Of a DNA stretch of 41,970 bases, positions 8,425-29,906 are shown one piece after another. A program made the position numbers and the translations under genes. Numbering within the stretch: position 1 is the stretch's first letter; each line of letters starts with the position of its first letter. Where the stretch lies: the IMG/VR virus record IMGVR_UViG_2061766007_000872; one strand, 5' to 3'. A model generated the notes under the pieces. It had not been told where the DNA came from. It searched no databases and saw only the letters and a list, made by a program, of their open reading frames with translations. The DNA is from an uncultured virus (IMG/VR IMGVR_UViG_2061766007_000872). Lineage: Duplodnaviria; Heunggongvirae; Uroviricota; Caudoviricetes.

Positions 8425-8435
8425 TTGTATAATAT
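8425..8435 (+). promoter_or_regulatory. Putative promoter TTGTATAATAT (-10 box without -35)
   Basis: One of 9 identical intergenic 11-mers; precedes the GT2 gene. Confidence 0.6.
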
Positions 8436-8470: not shown

Positions 8471-9445
8471 ATGACATTAGATATATTGATTCCTCAATAT
8501 AAAGAAACAAATGAAGTTATAAAGCCACTTCTAGATAGTATAGCATTACAACAAGGGATTAATTTTAATGACATTGGTGTTATTATTGTTAATGATGGTA
8601 GTAATGTCTTCTTAGATGAAGATTTTCTTAAATCTTATCAATATAAAATTAACTACATAAAAGCAGAACATCAAGGAGTTAGTGCCACAAGACAAAGAGC
8701 ACTTGATGAATCAAAAGCAGATTATGTTATGTTTTGTGATGCAGATGACATGTTCTGTGGCATGATGGGATTGTGGATTATCTTTAGAGAAATGCAAACT
8801 GGATTTGAGACTTTCTCTTCAGTTTTCTATGAACAAACAAAGATTCCGGATACTGATGAGTTAGTTTTTATAACAAGAGAATATGATTCAACATTTGTTC
8901 ACGGTAAAGTACATAGAAGAAAGTATTTAGTTGAACAGAACATTAGATGGAATCCTAATCTAACAATTCATGAAGATTCATACTTCAACATTTTATGTCA
9001 GAAGTGTACTCCACAAGTTAGATATTGTCAAACTCCATTCTATCTTTGGAAATGGAGAGATGATTCAGTTTGTAGAAATGACTTTAAATATATCCTTAAG
9101 ACTTATAATAATATGCTAGATAGCAACACAGCACTCATAACAAATCTCTTAAATAGAGGCAAATATCAAGATGCTCAGTTCTATGCCACATCAATGGTTT
9201 ATGATGCATACTTTACAATGAATAAAGATGAATGGATTAACCAAGAGAATAAAGAATATAGAGACAATACAGAAAAGAGATTTGCTGAATACTACAAGCA
9301 ATTCAAATTCATGGTAACTTCAGTTCCAAAAGAAGTTAAAGCAACAATTCTTCAAGGTCTTAGAAATAGATTCTATCAAGAAGGTATGTTACTTGAGACA
9401 ACAACATTTGAAGATTGGATTAAACACATTGAGGAGTTAGCATAA
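8471..9445 (+). CDS. Glycosyltransferase family 2
   Basis: LDILIPQY, IIVNDGS, GVSATR, YVMFCDADD (DxD), HED motifs. Confidence 0.9.
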   Translation: MTLDILIPQYKETNEVIKPLLDSIALQQGINFNDIGVIIVNDGSNVFLDEDFLKSYQYKINYIKAEHQGVSATRQRALDESKADYVMFCDADDMFCGMMGLWIIFREMQTGFETFSSVFYEQTKIPDTDELVFITREYDSTFVHGKVHRRKYLVEQNIRWNPNLTIHEDSYFNILCQKCTPQVRYCQTPFYLWKWRDDSVCRNDFKYILKTYNNMLDSNTALITNLLNRGKYQDAQFYATSMVYDAYFTMNKDEWINQENKEYRDNTEKRFAEYYKQFKFMVTSVPKEVKATILQGLRNRFYQEGMLLETTTFEDWIKHIEELA

Positions 9446-10311
9446 TGACAAAAGATAAAATTAGAGTTGTTATCATAGGTTACGGTACTGTAGGAAAGAA
9501 TCTCTCTAAAGAGTTAGAAGTTCTTGAGCCAGATATTTTTGATAGAAGACCTAATCCAGATAGTGTTTTAGGATTAGAACTTTATCATACTAATATTGAT
9601 ACTAGAAAATGTAGATTGAAAGATGATGGTACTACAGAACCTCTTACATATGATGTTGCTTTTATTTGTGTAGATACTCCTTGTACTGATGAATCTGTTT
9701 GTGATACAACACAAGTTAAAATGGCAATAGAAGAAACACCAGCAAAAGTCTATGTTATTAAGTCTACAGTTTTACCTCAAACAACAAAACATCTTAATGA
9801 AGAATTTGAGGCTAAATCATATCGTGAATTTGGAGATGATAGTCATAAAAAACATATAATTTTCTCCCCTGAATATTATGGTGCAACACAACACTGTAAT
9901 AACTTCAATTTTAACTTTACAATTCTTGGTGGAGATAAAGAAGATTGCTTAAAAGTTCAACAAGTTTTACAACATGTTTATGATGCTAGACATACATTTC
10001 GCATTGTAGATTCTACTACTGCAGAACTTGCTAAGTATATGGAAAATTGTTGGATTGCTACTAAGGTGTCTTTCTGTTGTAATTTTAGTGACATTGCAAA
10101 AATGTATGATGCAAACTATGAAACTTTAAGAGAGTTATTTATTCTTGACCCTAGAGTAAACCCTTCTCATACCTTTGTCTATGATGAAAAACCTTATTGG
10201 AGTTCACATTGCCTTGATAAAGATGTCAATGCTATTGCAGAGGCATCAGATAATGATTTCTTAAAATTTATTATTAATTTCAACAATAAATCAAAAAATA
10301 AAAATCCTTAG
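9445..10311 (+). CDS. ugd: UDP-glucose/GDP-mannose dehydrogenase family protein (short form)
   Basis: Rossmann GYGTVG, FICVDTP, VIKSTV, FSPEY, AELAKYMEN..ATKVSF, DPRV, catalytic-like HCLDKD. Confidence 0.85.
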   Translation: MTKDKIRVVIIGYGTVGKNLSKELEVLEPDIFDRRPNPDSVLGLELYHTNIDTRKCRLKDDGTTEPLTYDVAFICVDTPCTDESVCDTTQVKMAIEETPAKVYVIKSTVLPQTTKHLNEEFEAKSYREFGDDSHKKHIIFSPEYYGATQHCNNFNFNFTILGGDKEDCLKVQQVLQHVYDARHTFRIVDSTTAELAKYMENCWIATKVSFCCNFSDIAKMYDANYETLRELFILDPRVNPSHTFVYDEKPYWSSHCLDKDVNAIAEASDNDFLKFIINFNNKSKNKNP

Positions 10312-10390: not shown

Positions 10391-10927
10391 GTGAACGGTT
10401 GGCAAATNNNNNNNNNNNNNNNNNNNATAGGAACATTGTTTGGAGCATTTGGCCTCTCTGCATATTTTGTTGAGAGATTTAGACATAAAGCACAAAAGAA
10501 AAATAAGCAAGAAGACTCAGATGAAGAAAAGATTAAGGCAGCAGAAAAAATGGAATTAGAGAATACTATTGGTGAAGTTTTAGATAAAAAATTAGATGAA
10601 AAGATTATACCTCTTTTTAATGCATTCAAAGAAGAATTACTAGGAATTAAAGACAAAGTTAATACAATGTCTGATGATATGCAACTTCTCAAAAAAGGTG
10701 TTCAAGTTACCTGCCGCAATGACTTAGAAGATTTGTATGACAAAGCAGAGAAAGATGGCTATTGCTCAAAAGATGGAAAGAACAGATTTGATGCTACATA
10801 CAATGCTTACCATAATTTAGGAAAGAATGGTATCATGGATGAAAAATTCAAAAAGGTAGCAGCGATGAATGAGAGACCAAAAAGAAAAAGAACACCTAAG
10901 AAAAAGATTTTATTAGAAGACAAGTAA
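10391..10927 (+). CDS. Membrane-anchored holin-associated protein
   Basis: N-terminal hydrophobic segment, coiled coil, and GVQ..RNDL..Y..GY..YNAYHNLGKNG pattern seen in lysis-module proteins of Bacillota phages. Confidence 0.55.
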   Translation: MNGWQXXXXXXXIGTLFGAFGLSAYFVERFRHKAQKKNKQEDSDEEKIKAAEKMELENTIGEVLDKKLDEKIIPLFNAFKEELLGIKDKVNTMSDDMQLLKKGVQVTCRNDLEDLYDKAEKDGYCSKDGKNRFDATYNAYHNLGKNGIMDEKFKKVAAMNERPKRKRTPKKKILLEDK

Positions 10928-10946
10928 ATAAATTTAACGAGTAAAT

Positions 10947-10983
10947 AAAAAGACTTCTGCAAATGCTAAAGTCTTTTATTTTT
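10947..10983 (+). terminator. Intrinsic terminator
   Basis: AAAAGACTT-loop-AAGTCTTTT followed by ATTTTT. Confidence 0.7.
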
Positions 10984-10985
10984 GA

Positions 10986-11000
10986 TGCTAAATTTAATGA
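10986..11000 (+). promoter_or_regulatory. Putative late-promoter motif TGCTAAATTTAATGA
   Basis: Directly after a terminator and before RBS AAGGAG at ~11010. Confidence 0.7.
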
Positions 11001-11022
11001 TGAAATTATAAGGAGAATTACA

Positions 11023-11223
11023 NNNNNNNNNNNNNNNNNNNNNNCAGGACAAATTCCATTCATCGCTAATCTTAAGTACATGGAACCAAATGTTCCTACA
11101 AAAGACATTGATGCTAATGGTATTTATGGCACAAAAGAAGTTGATAGAGTTAACGTCAATGTTGAAACAGCGGAAGAATTGACACCTGAAGCACAACAAG
11201 AAATTCTTAATGAGGAGTATTAA
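11023..11223 (+). CDS. Small hypothetical protein (start inside N gap)
   Basis: RBS AAGGAG at ~11010 precedes the gap; frame open after the gap to TAA. Confidence 0.5.
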   Translation, partial: XXXXXXXXGQIPFIANLKYMEPNVPTKDIDANGIYGTKEVDRVNVNVETAEELTPEAQQEILNEEY

Positions 11224-24365: not shown

Positions 24366-24379
24366 TTGTATAATATATT

Positions 24380-24496
24380 ACCAAGCAAGACCGAGACATC
24401 TACCTTAAGGGTATAGCAAGTGGGCAAGTAAATGATGCTCTTTGGGATTATGGACATATGTCTGTAAGCACAGTGTAGACAATGCTCTACACTTTT
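24380..24496 (+). ncRNA. Candidate small RNA A (~115 nt)
   Basis: TTGTATAATAT at 24366; no ORF; hairpins TACC/GGTA and TTATGGAC/GTCTGTAA; terminal AGTGTAGA/TCTACACT plus T tract. Confidence 0.5.
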
Positions 24497-24497
24497 A

Positions 24498-24529
24498 TTG
24501 TATAATATAGTGAATGCTAAATTAAGTGA
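24498..24529 (+). promoter_or_regulatory. Tandem TTGTATAATAT and TGCTAAATTAAGTGA motifs
   Basis: 24498-24508 and 24515-24529. Confidence 0.65.
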
Positions 24530-24647
24530 ATCAATGAGTCAACATGTATGTTAGGACTCAGGTATATAAATTCATTGATTCTTATCTAACTAATTAGTTT
24601 AGGATTTTAGTTAGATATGTAAAAGAATTAAAAGGAGAATTTAATCA

Positions 24648-25061
24648 ATGGCTAAAGAAAAAGAATTAGTTCGTGAAAACGAATGCAATGAAATGACAGA
24701 TGCTCAAAGGGAAGCAATTGTCTACCGTTCAAAATTATTAAACAAATACTTTGAAAACTACTCAGACATGCTAAAAGAAGAAGCAGAGTTTAAGAGAGTT
24801 AATGAAGAAAAACTTAAAAAACAAGAGGAAAAGAAGGCCAGAGCAAAGGAAGTTGAAGAGGCATATCTCCAATATGAAGAAGTGAAAAGAAAAGCCTACA
24901 GCGAGATTTCCGAAGCAGAACAAAAATGGGTTGAACTTAGAAATAAGTTTGCACAAGACTACGGTGGCTACCACATGACATACACAAACAACAATGGAGA
25001 GACACAAATCTCATTTGGTGACATTGTGATGTCACACTTAATTGAAAATTTCTTACACTAA
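24648..25061 (+). CDS. Coiled-coil hypothetical protein with structured leader
   Basis: RBS AAAGGAG, Glu/Lys-rich helix, own terminator. Confidence 0.75.
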   Translation: MAKEKELVRENECNEMTDAQREAIVYRSKLLNKYFENYSDMLKEEAEFKRVNEEKLKKQEEKKARAKEVEEAYLQYEEVKRKAYSEISEAEQKWVELRNKFAQDYGGYHMTYTNNNGETQISFGDIVMSHLIENFLH

Positions 25062-25089
25062 GGATTCAATAAACTGAGTCCTTTTTTTT
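25060..25089 (+). terminator. Intrinsic terminator
   Basis: AAGGATTCA-ATAAAC-TGAGTCCTT plus T tract. Confidence 0.8.
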
Positions 25090-25110
25090 ATTTTTATTGT
25101 ATAATATATT

Positions 25111-25404
25111 GTGAGTGAGTAAACACCGCGCTAGGAATAAAAGCCTAATAAATAAAATCCAGTGAAGGCTTGAGGATATTAAAATCTAACGTATGGGCCA
25201 AAGTGCTTGGAATAAATAGNNNNNNNNNNNNNNNNNNNNNTGAATCTAAGTATAACTGAATGTTGATTTGGCGCTAACAAAGGCTTGCAAGTGAACAGAG
25301 GCCAGTTATCAGGCGACAAAAAATAGTTTAGAGTATGGGTGACAAAGGGTAAAACTAAGCGCCGAAATATGATAGCAAGAAAGACTTGAAATATAGTCTT
25401 TTTT
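25111..25404 (+). ncRNA. Candidate structured RNA B (~290 nt)
   Basis: TTGTATAATAT at 25097; GC-richer than flanks; no + strand ORF; several helices; terminator AAGACT/AGTCTT plus T tract. Confidence 0.6.
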
Positions 25405-25414
25405 ATTTTCTCTA

Positions 25415-25443
25415 TTGACAACTATTTAATATAATGATAAACT
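25415..25443 (+). promoter_or_regulatory. SigmaA-type promoter TTGACA-17-TAAACT
   Basis: Canonical spacing with TGn extension. Confidence 0.65.
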
Positions 25444-25449
25444 ATACTC

Positions 25450-25620
25450 GTGAGTTGCAATTGCACATATAACTCCAGGTAAATGCTAAAGTGTCAAGTG
25501 CAAAAGTTCTTCAATGGGGGTGTTTCAATTTCAAAAGAAGAATACCTAATGTGAAACTAGCGTAGGGACGCCACACTAGTTTCTAGACACAATAGAGAGT
25601 CTCTTGTAGATTCTCTTTTA
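25450..25620 (+). ncRNA. Candidate structured RNA C (~170 nt)
   Basis: GAGTTG/TAACTC hairpin; GTGTC/GACAC closing TTCTTC/GAAGAA and GAAACTAG/CTAGTTTC arms; terminator AGAGAGTCT/AGATTCTCT plus T tract. Confidence 0.6.
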
Positions 25621-25628
25621 TTTTTTTA

Positions 25629-25657
25629 TTGACAAATTATTGATATACTTATAAAAT
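25629..25657 (+). promoter_or_regulatory. SigmaA-type promoter TTGACA-17-TAAAAT
   Basis: Canonical spacing ahead of ATG 25678. Confidence 0.75.
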
Positions 25658-25677
25658 GGTTGTAGAGGTATATTGTT

Positions 25678-26603
25678 ATGAACATAAAAGATAAATCATC
25701 TGAGATTAAATTTACTAAAGAATACATTCAGAACACTCTTATAGAAATTCAAGATGCAACACAGCATCAAGATTATACTAAGGTTAAAGAAATAATGAAA
25801 AATTATGGTCTTAGTGCTTCAGTTGAGGACATTGATTTATTAAGACAATTAGCAAAGATACTTGATACTGAGATTCCAAAAGAAAGACTTTTGCGAATAA
25901 AAGAGGACCGAGATTTTGAAATATTTAAAGAGAAAATGAAACTTCATGAACTCTATTTGAAAAATGACCCCTCAGGTGTTAGGGCAGAAATTATAGGTCT
26001 AAATTTAAGAGGAAGAGTGTTAAGTGGATATAATTTTTCCTGTGCACAAATTAGAGATACTGACTTTAGTGCTTGCGCATTACCATATGCTAATTTTTGT
26101 AATGCATATCTTTATAATGTTAATTTTACAGGTGCTATCTTAAAGTATGCAAATCTTTCGGCTACTCTTTANNNNNNNNNNNNNNNNNNNNNNNNNNNNN
26201 NNNNNNNNNNNNNNNNNNNNNNNATAAAGACAAGAAAAAACTTGAGGATTATAAACATAGAACAGGAGTTTGTCTAAATAAACATATTATTGGTTGGAAA
26301 AAATGTCATTTGCCAAATGTTTTTTACCGTAAAGTTTTAGTTAAATTAGAAATTCCTAGAGGTGCTGTTGTATTCTCAATTAATAATGATAAATGTAGAA
26401 CAAACATGGCTAAAGTACTTGATATTGTATCTTTAGATGGAAAGAAACATTACAAACTTGCTTATGCTGGTTACAAATTATTTAAATATCGTGTAGGTAA
26501 AGAAATCTTTGAACCTAACTTCAATTGTCAATACAATGTTGAATGTGCAGAAGGTATACATTTCTTCAGAAATAAAAGGAGTGCAATCAATTATTATGGA
26601 TAA
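25678..26603 (+). CDS. Pentapeptide-repeat protein with C-terminal DUF5758-like domain (one gene across N gap)
   Basis: A(D/N)(L/F)xx repeats. After the gap the frame is open through IIGWKKC..VKLEIP..KCRT..AKV..CAEGIHFF. Confidence 0.75.
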
Positions 26604-26778
26604 GAAATTTGTAGTTTATCATTATCTAATGGATTCAAATCTTGAAAGTACATTGAATGAAATGGCAGATAATGGATATGAACTAATTCATCTACATACA
26701 AGAAATGAGTTTGACACTTATTACAAACATGACAAAAATATACATCTAGCAGTATTCAAGAAGATTGAAGAAAAATAG
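26596..26778 (+). CDS. Small protein, DUF4177-like
   Basis: MDKKFVVY..LESTLNEMADNGYELI pattern. Confidence 0.5.
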   Translation: MDKKFVVYHYLMDSNLESTLNEMADNGYELIHLHTRNEFDTYYKHDKNIHLAVFKKIEEK

Positions 26779-26943: not shown

Positions 26944-27022
26944 ATGAAATAAAGGGCACACTTACAGTGATGTAAGGTCGCAAAACTATGAGTCTCATTA
27001 GAGATTGTCAAGTCGCTTTCAT
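26944..27022 (+). ncRNA. c-di-GMP-I (GEMM) riboswitch aptamer
   Basis: P1 ATGAAA/TTTCAT; AAAGGGCACA; P2 CTTACA-GTGA-TGTAAG (GNRA loop); GTCGCAAA junction; P3 ACT..GTCTC/GAGAT..GTCAAGTCGC. Ligand-contact equivalents G20, A47 and C92 are retained. Confidence 0.88.
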
Positions 27023-27044
27023 GGAAACATGAAGGCTTTTATTT
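27015..27044 (+). terminator. Riboswitch expression-platform terminator
   Basis: GCTTTCATG-GAAA-CATGAAGGC-TTTTATTT; the 5' arm overlaps the 3' strand of P1. Confidence 0.88.
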
Positions 27045-27070
27045 GCAAAAAGCAAAGGAGAATATACAAA

Positions 27071-27646
27071 ATGAAATTAAGAAACAAATTAAGCATCATC
27101 ACAGTAGCATCTATGTTGGCATTTATGGGTGCTGGTTTCGCAGCATGGACATTCAACAATAGTGTTGCACAAGAAAGTGAATCTGGTACATATGTCACTT
27201 CTGCTATTAGTGCGAAAAATGTTACATTAAGTGGCAATACTACTGTGTACTTAGTTTTAGACCAAGCAAAACCATATTGGTCAACAGCGGTCAACACAGG
27301 CTCTAAGCCAGTTGAATTAGCCAATGGTAAAATTACAGTTGCTCCTGATTATGATTTACAAAATCAAAATGATGGTGCATCTTGGACATGGACTTTAACA
27401 AGTGTCATTGACATTGATTCTGACATTGCTAACTATGTGAATGTTACAGGTTTTGACACAACAAATAAAACAGGTACAATTCATGCAAATGTTGGTGAAA
27501 CAATTTCTCCAGTTGACTACAATCTTCCAACATTATCTTACACTGCTAATAAGCCAAGCACTTATGCAGAATATCAAGATATGTTAAGTGATGTTAATGG
27601 TAAAGTTATTACATTTACATTTAACTGCACATTTGTTGAAGACTAA
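27071..27646 (+). CDS. Secreted protein with SipW-class signal peptide (TasA/camelysin-like fibre subunit candidate)
   Basis: RBS AAAGGAG; MKLRNKLSIITVASMLAFMGAGFA-AWTF; beta-rich body ending ITFTFNCTFVED. Confidence 0.7.
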   Translation: MKLRNKLSIITVASMLAFMGAGFAAWTFNNSVAQESESGTYVTSAISAKNVTLSGNTTVYLVLDQAKPYWSTAVNTGSKPVELANGKITVAPDYDLQNQNDGASWTWTLTSVIDIDSDIANYVNVTGFDTTNKTGTIHANVGETISPVDYNLPTLSYTANKPSTYAEYQDMLSDVNGKVITFTFNCTFVED

Positions 27647-29420: not shown

Positions 29421-29463
29421 AAATATTGTATAATATTATGATTAGATGAAGTCGTTTAATAGA

Positions 29464-29478
29464 TGCTAAATTAAATAG
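29464..29478 (+). promoter_or_regulatory. Putative late-promoter motif TGCTAAATTAAATAG
   Basis: Identical to the copy at 18669; followed only by a short non-coding stretch and a terminator. Confidence 0.55.
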
Positions 29479-29503
29479 AATTGAAAAAGATAAAACTTTT
29501 TGC

Positions 29504-29531
29504 GGAGGAACAGAGGTTCCTCTATTTTTTT
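29504..29531 (+). terminator. Intrinsic terminator after the sipW operon
   Basis: GGAGGAAC-AGAG-GTTCCTCT plus ATTTTTTT. Confidence 0.8.
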
Positions 29532-29631
29532 GTTGTATAATATAGTAATTCATAAACCCTCACATGTTAGAAGGTACTGCAAAAATACTTGAACTATGCA
29601 GAAAATAGAGTCTAAAATTATNNNNNNNNNN

Positions 29632-29786
29632 AGAAGTTGGAGAGAATCATGATGTGTTTACTATTACTTCAGATGCATTCACTGTAAACTAAAAATATTG
29701 TATAATATAATAATTCATAAACCTTCACATGATAGGAGGTACTGCAAAAATACTTGAACTATGCAGAAAATAGAGTCTAAAATTAT
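29632..29786 (+). repeat. Variant second copy of ~29361-29436 joined to ~29545-29621 (strain haplotype joined across 10-N gap)
   Basis: Repeats the 3' end of gene 28437..29420 and the following RNA-like element with scattered substitutions. Confidence 0.85.
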
Positions 29787-29814
29787 GAACGTGATAATGA
29801 GTAGACTCTTTTTT
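29712..29814 (+). ncRNA. Candidate small RNA/attenuator E (~100 nt; partial variant copy at 29547-29621)
   Basis: TTGTATAATAT upstream; TTCATAA/TTATGAA closing ACCTTC/GGAGGT and CTGCA/TGCAG; AGAGTCTA/TAGACTCT plus T tract. Confidence 0.55.
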
Positions 29815-29877
29815 ATTTGACATCAAGTTGATAAAATNNNNNNNNNNAAACGTGATAATGAGTAGACTCTTTTTTAT

Positions 29878-29906
29878 TTGACATCAAGTTGATAAAATGA
29901 TATAAT
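29878..29906 (+). promoter_or_regulatory. SigmaA-type promoter TTGACA-17-TATAAT
   Basis: Perfect consensus with TGn extension; RBS AAGGAGG follows. Confidence 0.85.

Follow-up and report, generated by a model that had tools for sequence, protein, structure and literature searches.

A non-coding transcript of about 290 nt, here termed RNA1, is predicted at 25112-25404 on the + strand of the window (the whole stretch of 41,970 nt that was analysed), between a promoter and an intrinsic terminator. On balance, RNA1 is best explained as a real, new orphan phage small RNA that is loosely folded, carries a 3' domain and a terminator hairpin, and would act in trans on host RNA or protein. The preliminary description had called 25097-25404 an uncharacterised phage ncRNA, and this call is probably right: exact RNA contigs were found in two studies, no coding signal was detected, and no match to an Rfam family, tRNA or tmRNA was obtained.

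The window has a GC content of 31.6% and derives from a large, low-GC phage; gene-like ORFs of at least 90 aa are located on the + strand only over the whole 41,970 nt, and the encoded proteins include a portal, a prohead protease and a T4-gp23/HK97-like capsid protein. The closest isolate matches are Bacillus and Listeria myoviruses, with about 30% capsid identity, and the relatives in IMG/VR (records of 115-217 kb) reach 53-82% capsid identity. The public runs that contain the stretch are bovine gut/rumen metagenomes, and the phage is a large low-GC rumen myovirus of virulent type. Two group I introns were also observed in a related phage record of 217 kb (L018), within the region that matches the capsid gene (10414-10756, 89 bits; 10873-11175, 58 bits).

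Positions 24648-26171 are partly present in 20 runs (six of them RNA libraries) from 17 studies. Contigs were compared over 2.9 kb for two DNA runs (X3, X4) and for two of the six RNA runs (X9, X16), the latter from different studies; the RNA runs X17-X20 and 12 DNA runs contain 5-17% of the sampled words and were not counted as evidence. The layout of the locus is as follows:

24648-25061, + strand: gene of 137 aa, the ORF upstream of RNA1.
25060-25090, + strand: terminator of the 137-aa gene (stem 25060-25083 of 9 pairs, then a T-run; -10.3 kcal/mol, z -3.6), the left cassette boundary.
25092-25111, + strand: promoter motif of RNA1, in which a perfect -10 element (TATAAT, 25100-25105) stands behind TG and a tract rich in T; a -35 hexamer is missing.
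25112-25404, + strand: RNA1, predicted non-coding transcript of about 290 nt (promoter, terminator, RNA contigs, stops).
25267-25366, + strand: 3' domain of RNA1, closed by a 9-bp helix and enclosing a 5-bp hairpin (25282-25286/25299-25303) with a 12-nt loop.
25377-25409, + strand: terminator of RNA1, a hairpin (25377-25404; 10 bp, 8-nt loop) and U-tract.
25415-25443, + strand: promoter of RNA2, TTGACA-17-TGnTAAACT, with 10 of 12 consensus matches and TG.
25415-25625, + strand: RNA2, a second ORF-free unit of about 170 nt (promoter, then a terminator at 25594-25616).
25629-25657, + strand: third promoter, with 11 of 12 consensus matches, which drives the pentapeptide-repeat gene.
25678-26277, + strand: pentapeptide-repeat gene, downstream of RNA2.

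The 5' end of RNA1 (about 25112) and its strand are predicted from the promoter and the terminator. RNA1 contains a masked stretch of 21 nt, at which eight extra letters are present in all of X3, X4, X9 and X16. RNA2 has a GC content of 38.9% and fold z-scores of -2.4 and -1.8, which are better than those of RNA1; a permissive scan of the locus gave no Rfam match for RNA2. It is covered by DNA contigs of X3 and X4 and lacks cover in the RNA runs X9 and X16, a contig gap that proves nothing. The RNAs are followed, at 25678-26778, by three small accessory genes of variable cargo, for a pentapeptide-repeat protein, a DUF5758 protein and an 89-aa ORF. Further downstream, a c-di-GMP-I riboswitch (26945-27020; 49 bits, gathering score 35) is located upstream of the ORF 27005-27646, whose product begins with a hydrophobic, signal-like segment; in the relative L006, a c-di-GMP-I riboswitch (10060-10133; 52.5 bits) directly follows the homologue of the 137-aa gene.

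A promoter belonging to the RNA itself had been claimed, and this was borne out: TTGTATAATAT at 25097-25107 is one of nine exact copies of this 11-nt core in the window, all on the + strand and all between ORFs. When up to one mismatch was permitted on both strands, 13 matches were found against 5.03 +/- 2.2 in shuffles, and none of 100 shuffles reached 13. A 20-nt version of the promoter is present in three copies (24493, 25092 and 26774), and the same motif precedes the orthologue of the 137-aa gene in L006. As judged from the motif, the promoter of RNA1 is a strong one of the extended -10 type, of a class that the phage uses at least nine times. The claimed terminator was also recovered: at 25377-25404, an A-U-rich hairpin of 10 bp leads into a U-tract (-9.1 kcal/mol, z -3.1; 1 of 200 shuffles was as good), and its stability is comparable to that of the neighbouring terminators (-10.3 and -9.8 kcal/mol). 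A consensus scan did not report this terminator because its hairpin has only two G-C pairs. No RNA contig of X9 or X16 reaches it, 25367-25404 being uncovered, and such a contig gap proves nothing.

Other elements recur near the promoters. A short motif, TGCTAAATT, is repeated near those at 24515, 26918 and 29465 and was also found in L006 and L007. The 5' untranslated region of the 137-aa gene, of about 135 nt (24513-24647), is conserved in L006 (9512-9669; 74% over 162 nt) and could be a regulatory leader.

The preliminary description had named RNA-seq as a check for a transcript, and contigs of RNA1 were found in two rumen metatranscriptome studies. In X9, a whole contig of 255 nt lies on 25119-25365 with no substitution (depth 10), and in X16 a whole contig of 202 nt lies on 25119-25312, again with no substitution (depth 5.1). 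Both start at the same base, 25119, which is 14 nt past the -10 element, and neither has loose ends; the DNA contigs of X3 and X4 continue uninterrupted past the ends of these RNA contigs. Over the 2.9 kb, the RNA1 contigs are the only substitution-free pieces in X9 and X16. The remaining pieces (four of the five in X9, one of the two in X16) are short and less than 90% alike, and are therefore attributed to other phages; the flanking genes are represented only by such pieces. For three further copies of the RNA1 promoter within the 2.9-kb stretch (24366, 24498 and 26779), no matching RNA contig was found in X9 or X16. The exact contigs on RNA1, with only dissimilar pieces on its flanks, therefore point to a discrete, accumulating, non-coding phage transcript. 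This pattern is what a discrete, stable and abundant transcript would give, in a sample of two RNA runs and from contigs, which carry no information on strand, true ends or RNA level.

As had been stated, RNA1 holds no ORF on the + strand: the three + frames (99 codons each) contain 12, 8 and 10 stops, of all three kinds, and about 8-9 per 99 codons are expected, by a rough estimate, for random sequence of this composition. The longest open run on the + strand extends over 35 codons, across the masked stretch. No reassignment of a single stop codon opens RNA1, and alternative stop readings give at most 46 codons on the + strand. A tblastx search of 25085-25660 against all fetched loci of relatives gave nothing below E 0.38. 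Opposite RNA1, on the - strand, an ORF of 80 aa is present at 25179-25421; it begins at a TTG within the promoter of RNA2, has no ribosome-binding site before its start, and has no homologue among 5.8 billion clustered proteins searched at 44-140 aa. Antisense ORFs of 63-101 aa also overlap real + strand genes nearby, and the 80-aa ORF is therefore unremarkable in this A-rich phage. In the relatives represented by X3 and X4, 1-nt insertions after 25277, 25341 and 25353, and the eight letters at the mask, would shift any frame. The search for a conserved coding signal on either strand, by stop counts, tblastx and protein homologues, was thus negative, in agreement with the ncRNA call.

The reported elevation in GC content is real and modest: RNA1 has 38.3% GC against a mean of 32.0% for coding sequence (sd 3.0, maximum 38.3%), i.e. 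about 2 sd above it, and exceeds eight other intergenic stretches (24-35.5%). Purines make up 64.5% of RNA1 (A 40%, G 25%, U 22%, C 14%), compared to a mean of 55.6% and a maximum of 64.3% for coding strands. The purine-rich, positively skewed composition thus resembles that of the coding strands of the phage, and also fits a decayed gene.

The structural part of the preliminary description fared less well. The complementary segments that it had named are all present, but all except the 9-bp helix are at chance level relative to shuffles. The 3' half of RNA1 has four helices of at least 7 bp against 3.2 in shuffles, and the 7-bp pair 25252/25303 (-5.1 kcal/mol) and the 6-bp pair 25324/25352 (-2.3) are ordinary by the same comparison. 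The exception, a G-C-rich helix of 9 bp (25267-25275/25358-25366), has -13.2 kcal/mol, and an equally stable helix was found in 1.7% of 300 shuffles. In both the minimum-energy and the centroid fold it is nested and closes a domain of about 100 nt, and the 1-nt insertions in X3/X4 (after 25277, 25341 and 25353) fall outside both of its arms; those after 25341 and 25353 hit the arms of 25305-25310/25338-25343 (minimum-energy fold) and of 25324/25352, respectively. With dinucleotide shuffles, the fold z-score is +0.65 for the 5' half, -0.14 for the 3' half without the terminator, -1.0 for the 3' half with it, and -1.3 for the domain 25262-25370, against a background of mean -0.5 (sd 1.1) in 141-nt windows of the phage. 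The purine content of 64.5% limits pairing to at most about 70% of the bases. The claim of a structured RNA is hence unsupported, given a folding energy no better than that of shuffles, the purine content and the chance level of all listed helices but one. The pseudoknot is likewise not sustained, since it needs the chance-level 7-bp helix 25252/25303, which is missing from the minimum-energy fold, where the 9-bp helix is nested. The credible structure is confined to a 3' domain of about 100 nt closed by the 9-bp helix and followed by the terminator hairpin, in an otherwise loosely folded RNA; the earlier structural model should be dropped pending an alignment of variants.

The comparison with Rfam that had been suggested (4227 models, Rfam 15) gave no gathering-level match to RNA1, in line with the earlier statement that by eye it does not match tRNA, tmRNA, RNase P, 6S or raiA; the c-di-GMP-I riboswitch at 26945-27020 is the sole gathering-level match in the window. 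These models presumably include tRNA, tmRNA, RNase P, 6S, raiA, ROOL, GOLLD and phi29 pRNA. When the locus and its two halves were scanned permissively (E up to 10), with the masked stretch splitting RNA1, 3, 3 and 1 matches of 9.2-17.5 bits against thresholds of 35-85 were obtained, none of them credible, and ARAGORN predicted no tRNA or tmRNA gene. A blastn search with RNA1 against phages and plasmids gave no match. Exact words of 18-20 nt from RNA1 matched four viral contigs, all GC-rich and unrelated, and two further word searches gave none; among metagenome contigs one unrelated GC-rich match was obtained, and among genome contigs none. A search of viral contigs for the arms of the 9-bp helix, with a gap of 70-100 nt, returned 58 loci (44-68% GC in the match), none with blastn similarity at E <0.1. 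Local blastn against 14 loci of capsid relatives and 32 loci of the upstream gene detected only AT-rich, promoter- or terminator-like bits; in the whole records of five related viral contigs no homologue was found, and such bits were present in three of the five. RNA1 was also absent from three MAGs and from 106 genomes of one order, and in 401 genomes of another order a single A-rich match of 20 nt was found; these genomes are samples, and the negative result holds for those searched. The two halves of RNA1 show no significant similarity to each other (133 of 500 shuffles scored equally well), nor is RNA1 significantly similar to RNA2. A literature search, at the level of listings, yielded no description of an RNA like RNA1 in rumen phages.

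Three known types of RNA were considered for RNA1 and rejected. A type III antitoxin or phage pseudo-antitoxin RNA would show near-identical tandem repeats of some 34-45 nt, and a full system would have an endoribonuclease toxin gene next to it; Tandem Repeats Finder (minimum score 30) returned no rows, and no toxin family was found among the neighbours of RNA1. A riboswitch or cis-acting leader would lie in the 5' untranslated region of the gene under its control and does not fit the layout, in which a further promoter and another ORF-free unit come next after RNA1, and the first ORF is 270 nt on and has its own promoter. For a sponge of the CsrA type, the 5' half offers three GGA motifs, whose GG, however, are placed in stems and not in loops by the minimum-energy fold.

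A base-pairing regulatory sRNA would need an accessible seed that is significantly complementary to a target mRNA. Targets of RNA1 were sought among 47 translation-initiation regions of the window (less those with masked bases), where 60% and 12% of shuffles equalled the best duplexes; no significant duplex between RNA1 and RNA2 was predicted.

The sequence comparison shows RNA1 to be a single cassette within a hypervariable slot, with composite terminator-promoter motifs on both sides. The boundaries are the terminator at 25060-25083 with the motif at 25092-25111 on the left, and the hairpin at 25377-25404 with the promoter at 25415-25443 on the right. After the 137-aa gene, the slot contains a c-di-GMP riboswitch in L006, a terminase-like gene in L007 and small ORFs in L028. 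Joints between promoter copies were found in the relatives, from 24378 to 24515 in X3 and from 24514 to 25093 in X4; 25675-26507 is missing in X4, and 25672-25899 is replaced in X3. RNA1 and RNA2 are nevertheless kept together in the window, X3 and X4 (the X3/X4 relatives being about 95% alike) despite the differing downstream genes. Within 24645-25671 of X3, at least 26 of the 51 substitutions are located in 290 nt of the 137-aa gene (at least 9.0%), 17 of them at third codon positions and with 13 of the 23 changed codons synonymous; the other 737 nt, including RNA1 and RNA2, have at most 25 (at most 3.4%). The low divergence of the RNA part could equally reflect purifying selection or a recent transfer of the cassette.

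Further short ORF-free units follow the same promoter motif at 24366-24493, 29426-29530 and 29533-29900. The unit 24379-24514 is missing from the X3 relative. A duplication of about 165 nt in 29533-29900 takes in the final codons of the gene upstream, and a terminator-promoter piece of about 50 nt is repeated on either side of a masked stretch. Several of these other units between promoter and terminator look like recombination debris.

RNA1 itself might be such debris, i.e. an empty or decayed cassette from recombination at the motifs that is functionless and is transcribed via its retained promoter and terminator. We regard this as unlikely, if the most substantial objection. The cargo after the 137-aa gene differs in every relative examined (L006, L007 and L028), the joints in X3 and X4 fall at promoter copies, other short ORF-free units exist (one pair duplicated with the 3' end of a gene), the purine-rich composition matches coding strands, the fold z-score is near 0, and no homologue was found in the collections searched. 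Mere debris is at odds with the presence of RNA1 in the RNA libraries of two studies from which, over 2.9 kb, transcripts of three other copies of the same promoter are absent, and with its retention alongside RNA2 in three variants with differing downstream genes. The divergence (at most 3.4% in the RNA part against at least 9.0% in the adjacent gene) also speaks against it, and nothing remains that would betray an earlier reading frame (stop density about random by estimate; no tblastx match). It is improbable, too, that RNA1 is densely structured, with a tertiary fold in which the loop 25267-25275 pairs with 25358-25366 as a pseudoknot across the 25252/25303 helix. The complementary segments on the list are all present, the 9-bp pairing surpasses 98% of shuffles, GC is elevated, and the RNA was stable enough to be assembled from metatranscriptomes; but the fold z-scores (+0.65, -0.14, -1.0), the 64.5% purine with at most about 70% of bases able to pair, and a required 7-bp helix that is at chance level and unused in the minimum-energy fold argue against this fold, as do the insertions after 25341 and 25353 inside helix arms in relatives and the lack of an Rfam family match.

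The two other alternatives concern the use of the transcript. If RNA1 were the by-product of a terminated leader, the polymerase would stop at 25377-25404 unless a phage antiterminator permitted read-through, in the manner of the lambda late promoter with its short ORF-free transcript. The order of promoter, ORF-free stretch and terminator, with downstream genes all on the same strand, suits such a leader, which would also account for cover on RNA1 alone in the RNA libraries, and intergenic terminators recur across the region. The downstream units, however, have their own promoters at 25415 (10/12) and 25629 (11/12), RNA1 is immediately followed by a further ORF-free RNA, the window contains no recognisable antiterminator gene, and the same promoter class drives ordinary genes without a leader (e.g. 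at 8425, before the gene at 8471), so that a terminated leader is very improbable. There is least to be said for a messenger, encoding one or more tiny peptides on the + strand or the 80-aa ORF 25179-25421 on the opposite strand, which we consider scarcely probable. Shine-Dalgarno-like GGA/GAGGA is present at 25133, 25173 and 25209, an ATG ORF of eight codons lies at 25193-25219, the masked stretch could hide a start codon, and the antisense ORF does exist. The spacing from GAGGA to ATG is, however, 16 nt, and an ORF that starts in the mask would stop within about eight codons past it; the antisense ORF starts at a TTG in the RNA2 promoter without a preceding ribosome-binding site, has no homologue, is on a strand that carries no other gene, and would be shifted in frame by the three 1-nt insertions and the eight extra letters of the relatives.

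On the reading of RNA1 as an orphan phage small RNA, transcription starts at the extended -10 promoter and ends at or just before the intrinsic terminator, and the product, which is purine- and A-rich and mostly loosely folded, appears to accumulate far more than the surrounding mRNAs; its action would require no elaborate tertiary fold. Cassettes are gained and lost by recombination at the terminator-promoter motifs. During infection RNA1 may act in trans, with its long single-stranded A/G-rich stretches pairing with or titrating a host RNA or RNA-binding protein, and might thus be a riboregulator or a decoy. As the phage window yielded no target, a host target is probable. A bolder version, which we put forward only tentatively and consider unlikely, is that with RNA1 a new class of phage RNAs comes into view that accumulate to high levels, i.e. 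ORF-free cargo on mobile cassettes that serves as decoy or sponge for an RNA-binding factor or a defence component of the host. If that were true, cassette shuffling in large phages would exchange RNA genes besides small ORFs, and its signal would already be contained in rumen metatranscriptomes.

Hardly any study has addressed the small RNAs that large virulent phages of Gram-positive or low-GC gut bacteria make, and RNA1 adds an orphan candidate with independent expression evidence from environmental RNA, which suggests that cassette slots of these phages can carry RNA genes. A functional RNA1 would provide a handle on host manipulation by an uncultured rumen phage; a functionless RNA1 would be a clean case of a strongly transcribed, stable cassette and a caution for the discovery of ncRNAs in metatranscriptomes.

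Short, abundant, ORF-free transcripts are known from other phages: the late promoter of lambda makes a short terminated ORF-free transcript, and T4 has small stable RNAs. RNA1 is like these in being abundant, short and free of ORFs, with an intrinsic terminator at its end and with no function or none that is known, and unlike them in that neither an antiterminator nor a tRNA cluster was found nearby and there is no relation in sequence. ROOL and GOLLD are far longer RNAs, recognised by an extensive structure that covaries, whereas RNA1 has about 290 nt, matches none of the 4227 Rfam models and is without the thermodynamic signature of dense structure. The setting in rumen and phage is shared, as is the abundance of an RNA without known function, as far as the sources at hand describe these large ornate RNAs, which are associated with phages and prophages and of which ROOL was first seen in rumen metagenomes (PMC5737381; 10.1101/2024.12.08.627333).

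The slot in which RNA1 is located resembles the PeSL cassettes of T4-type phages, in which, according to the passages drawn on here, composite terminator/early-promoter motifs mediate modular shuffling in hyperplastic regions (PMC4122927, PMC2839356). In both, a terminator stem-loop and a conserved promoter motif flank variable cargo; in the RNA1 phage this motif is significantly repeated, the indel end points of the relatives (X3, X4) lie in it, and the T4-gp23-like capsid protein, at low identity, recalls the T4-type phages. The cargo of PeSL cassettes as outlined there consists of ORFs (PMC4122927), whereas the RNA1 cassette is ORF-free. Its motif is the phage's own sequence and not a T4-type early promoter, two promoter classes alternate, and the phage belongs to a group distant from the T4-type, with Bacillus and Listeria phages as its closest isolates at about 30% capsid identity.

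Phage-encoded trans-acting small RNAs are mostly of 50-200 nt, come from prophages and phages of Proteobacteria, and have known Hfq-dependent targets. RNA1 differs from them in its length of about 290 nt, in its origin from a large phage of virulent type with a low-GC rumen host, and in that no homologue and no target in the window were found. It shares with them, to the extent that their review outlines them (PMC12197685), the short ORF-free unit from promoter to terminator, the location in an accessory region and the discrete RNA, and in kind RNA1 belongs with these phage-encoded small RNAs.
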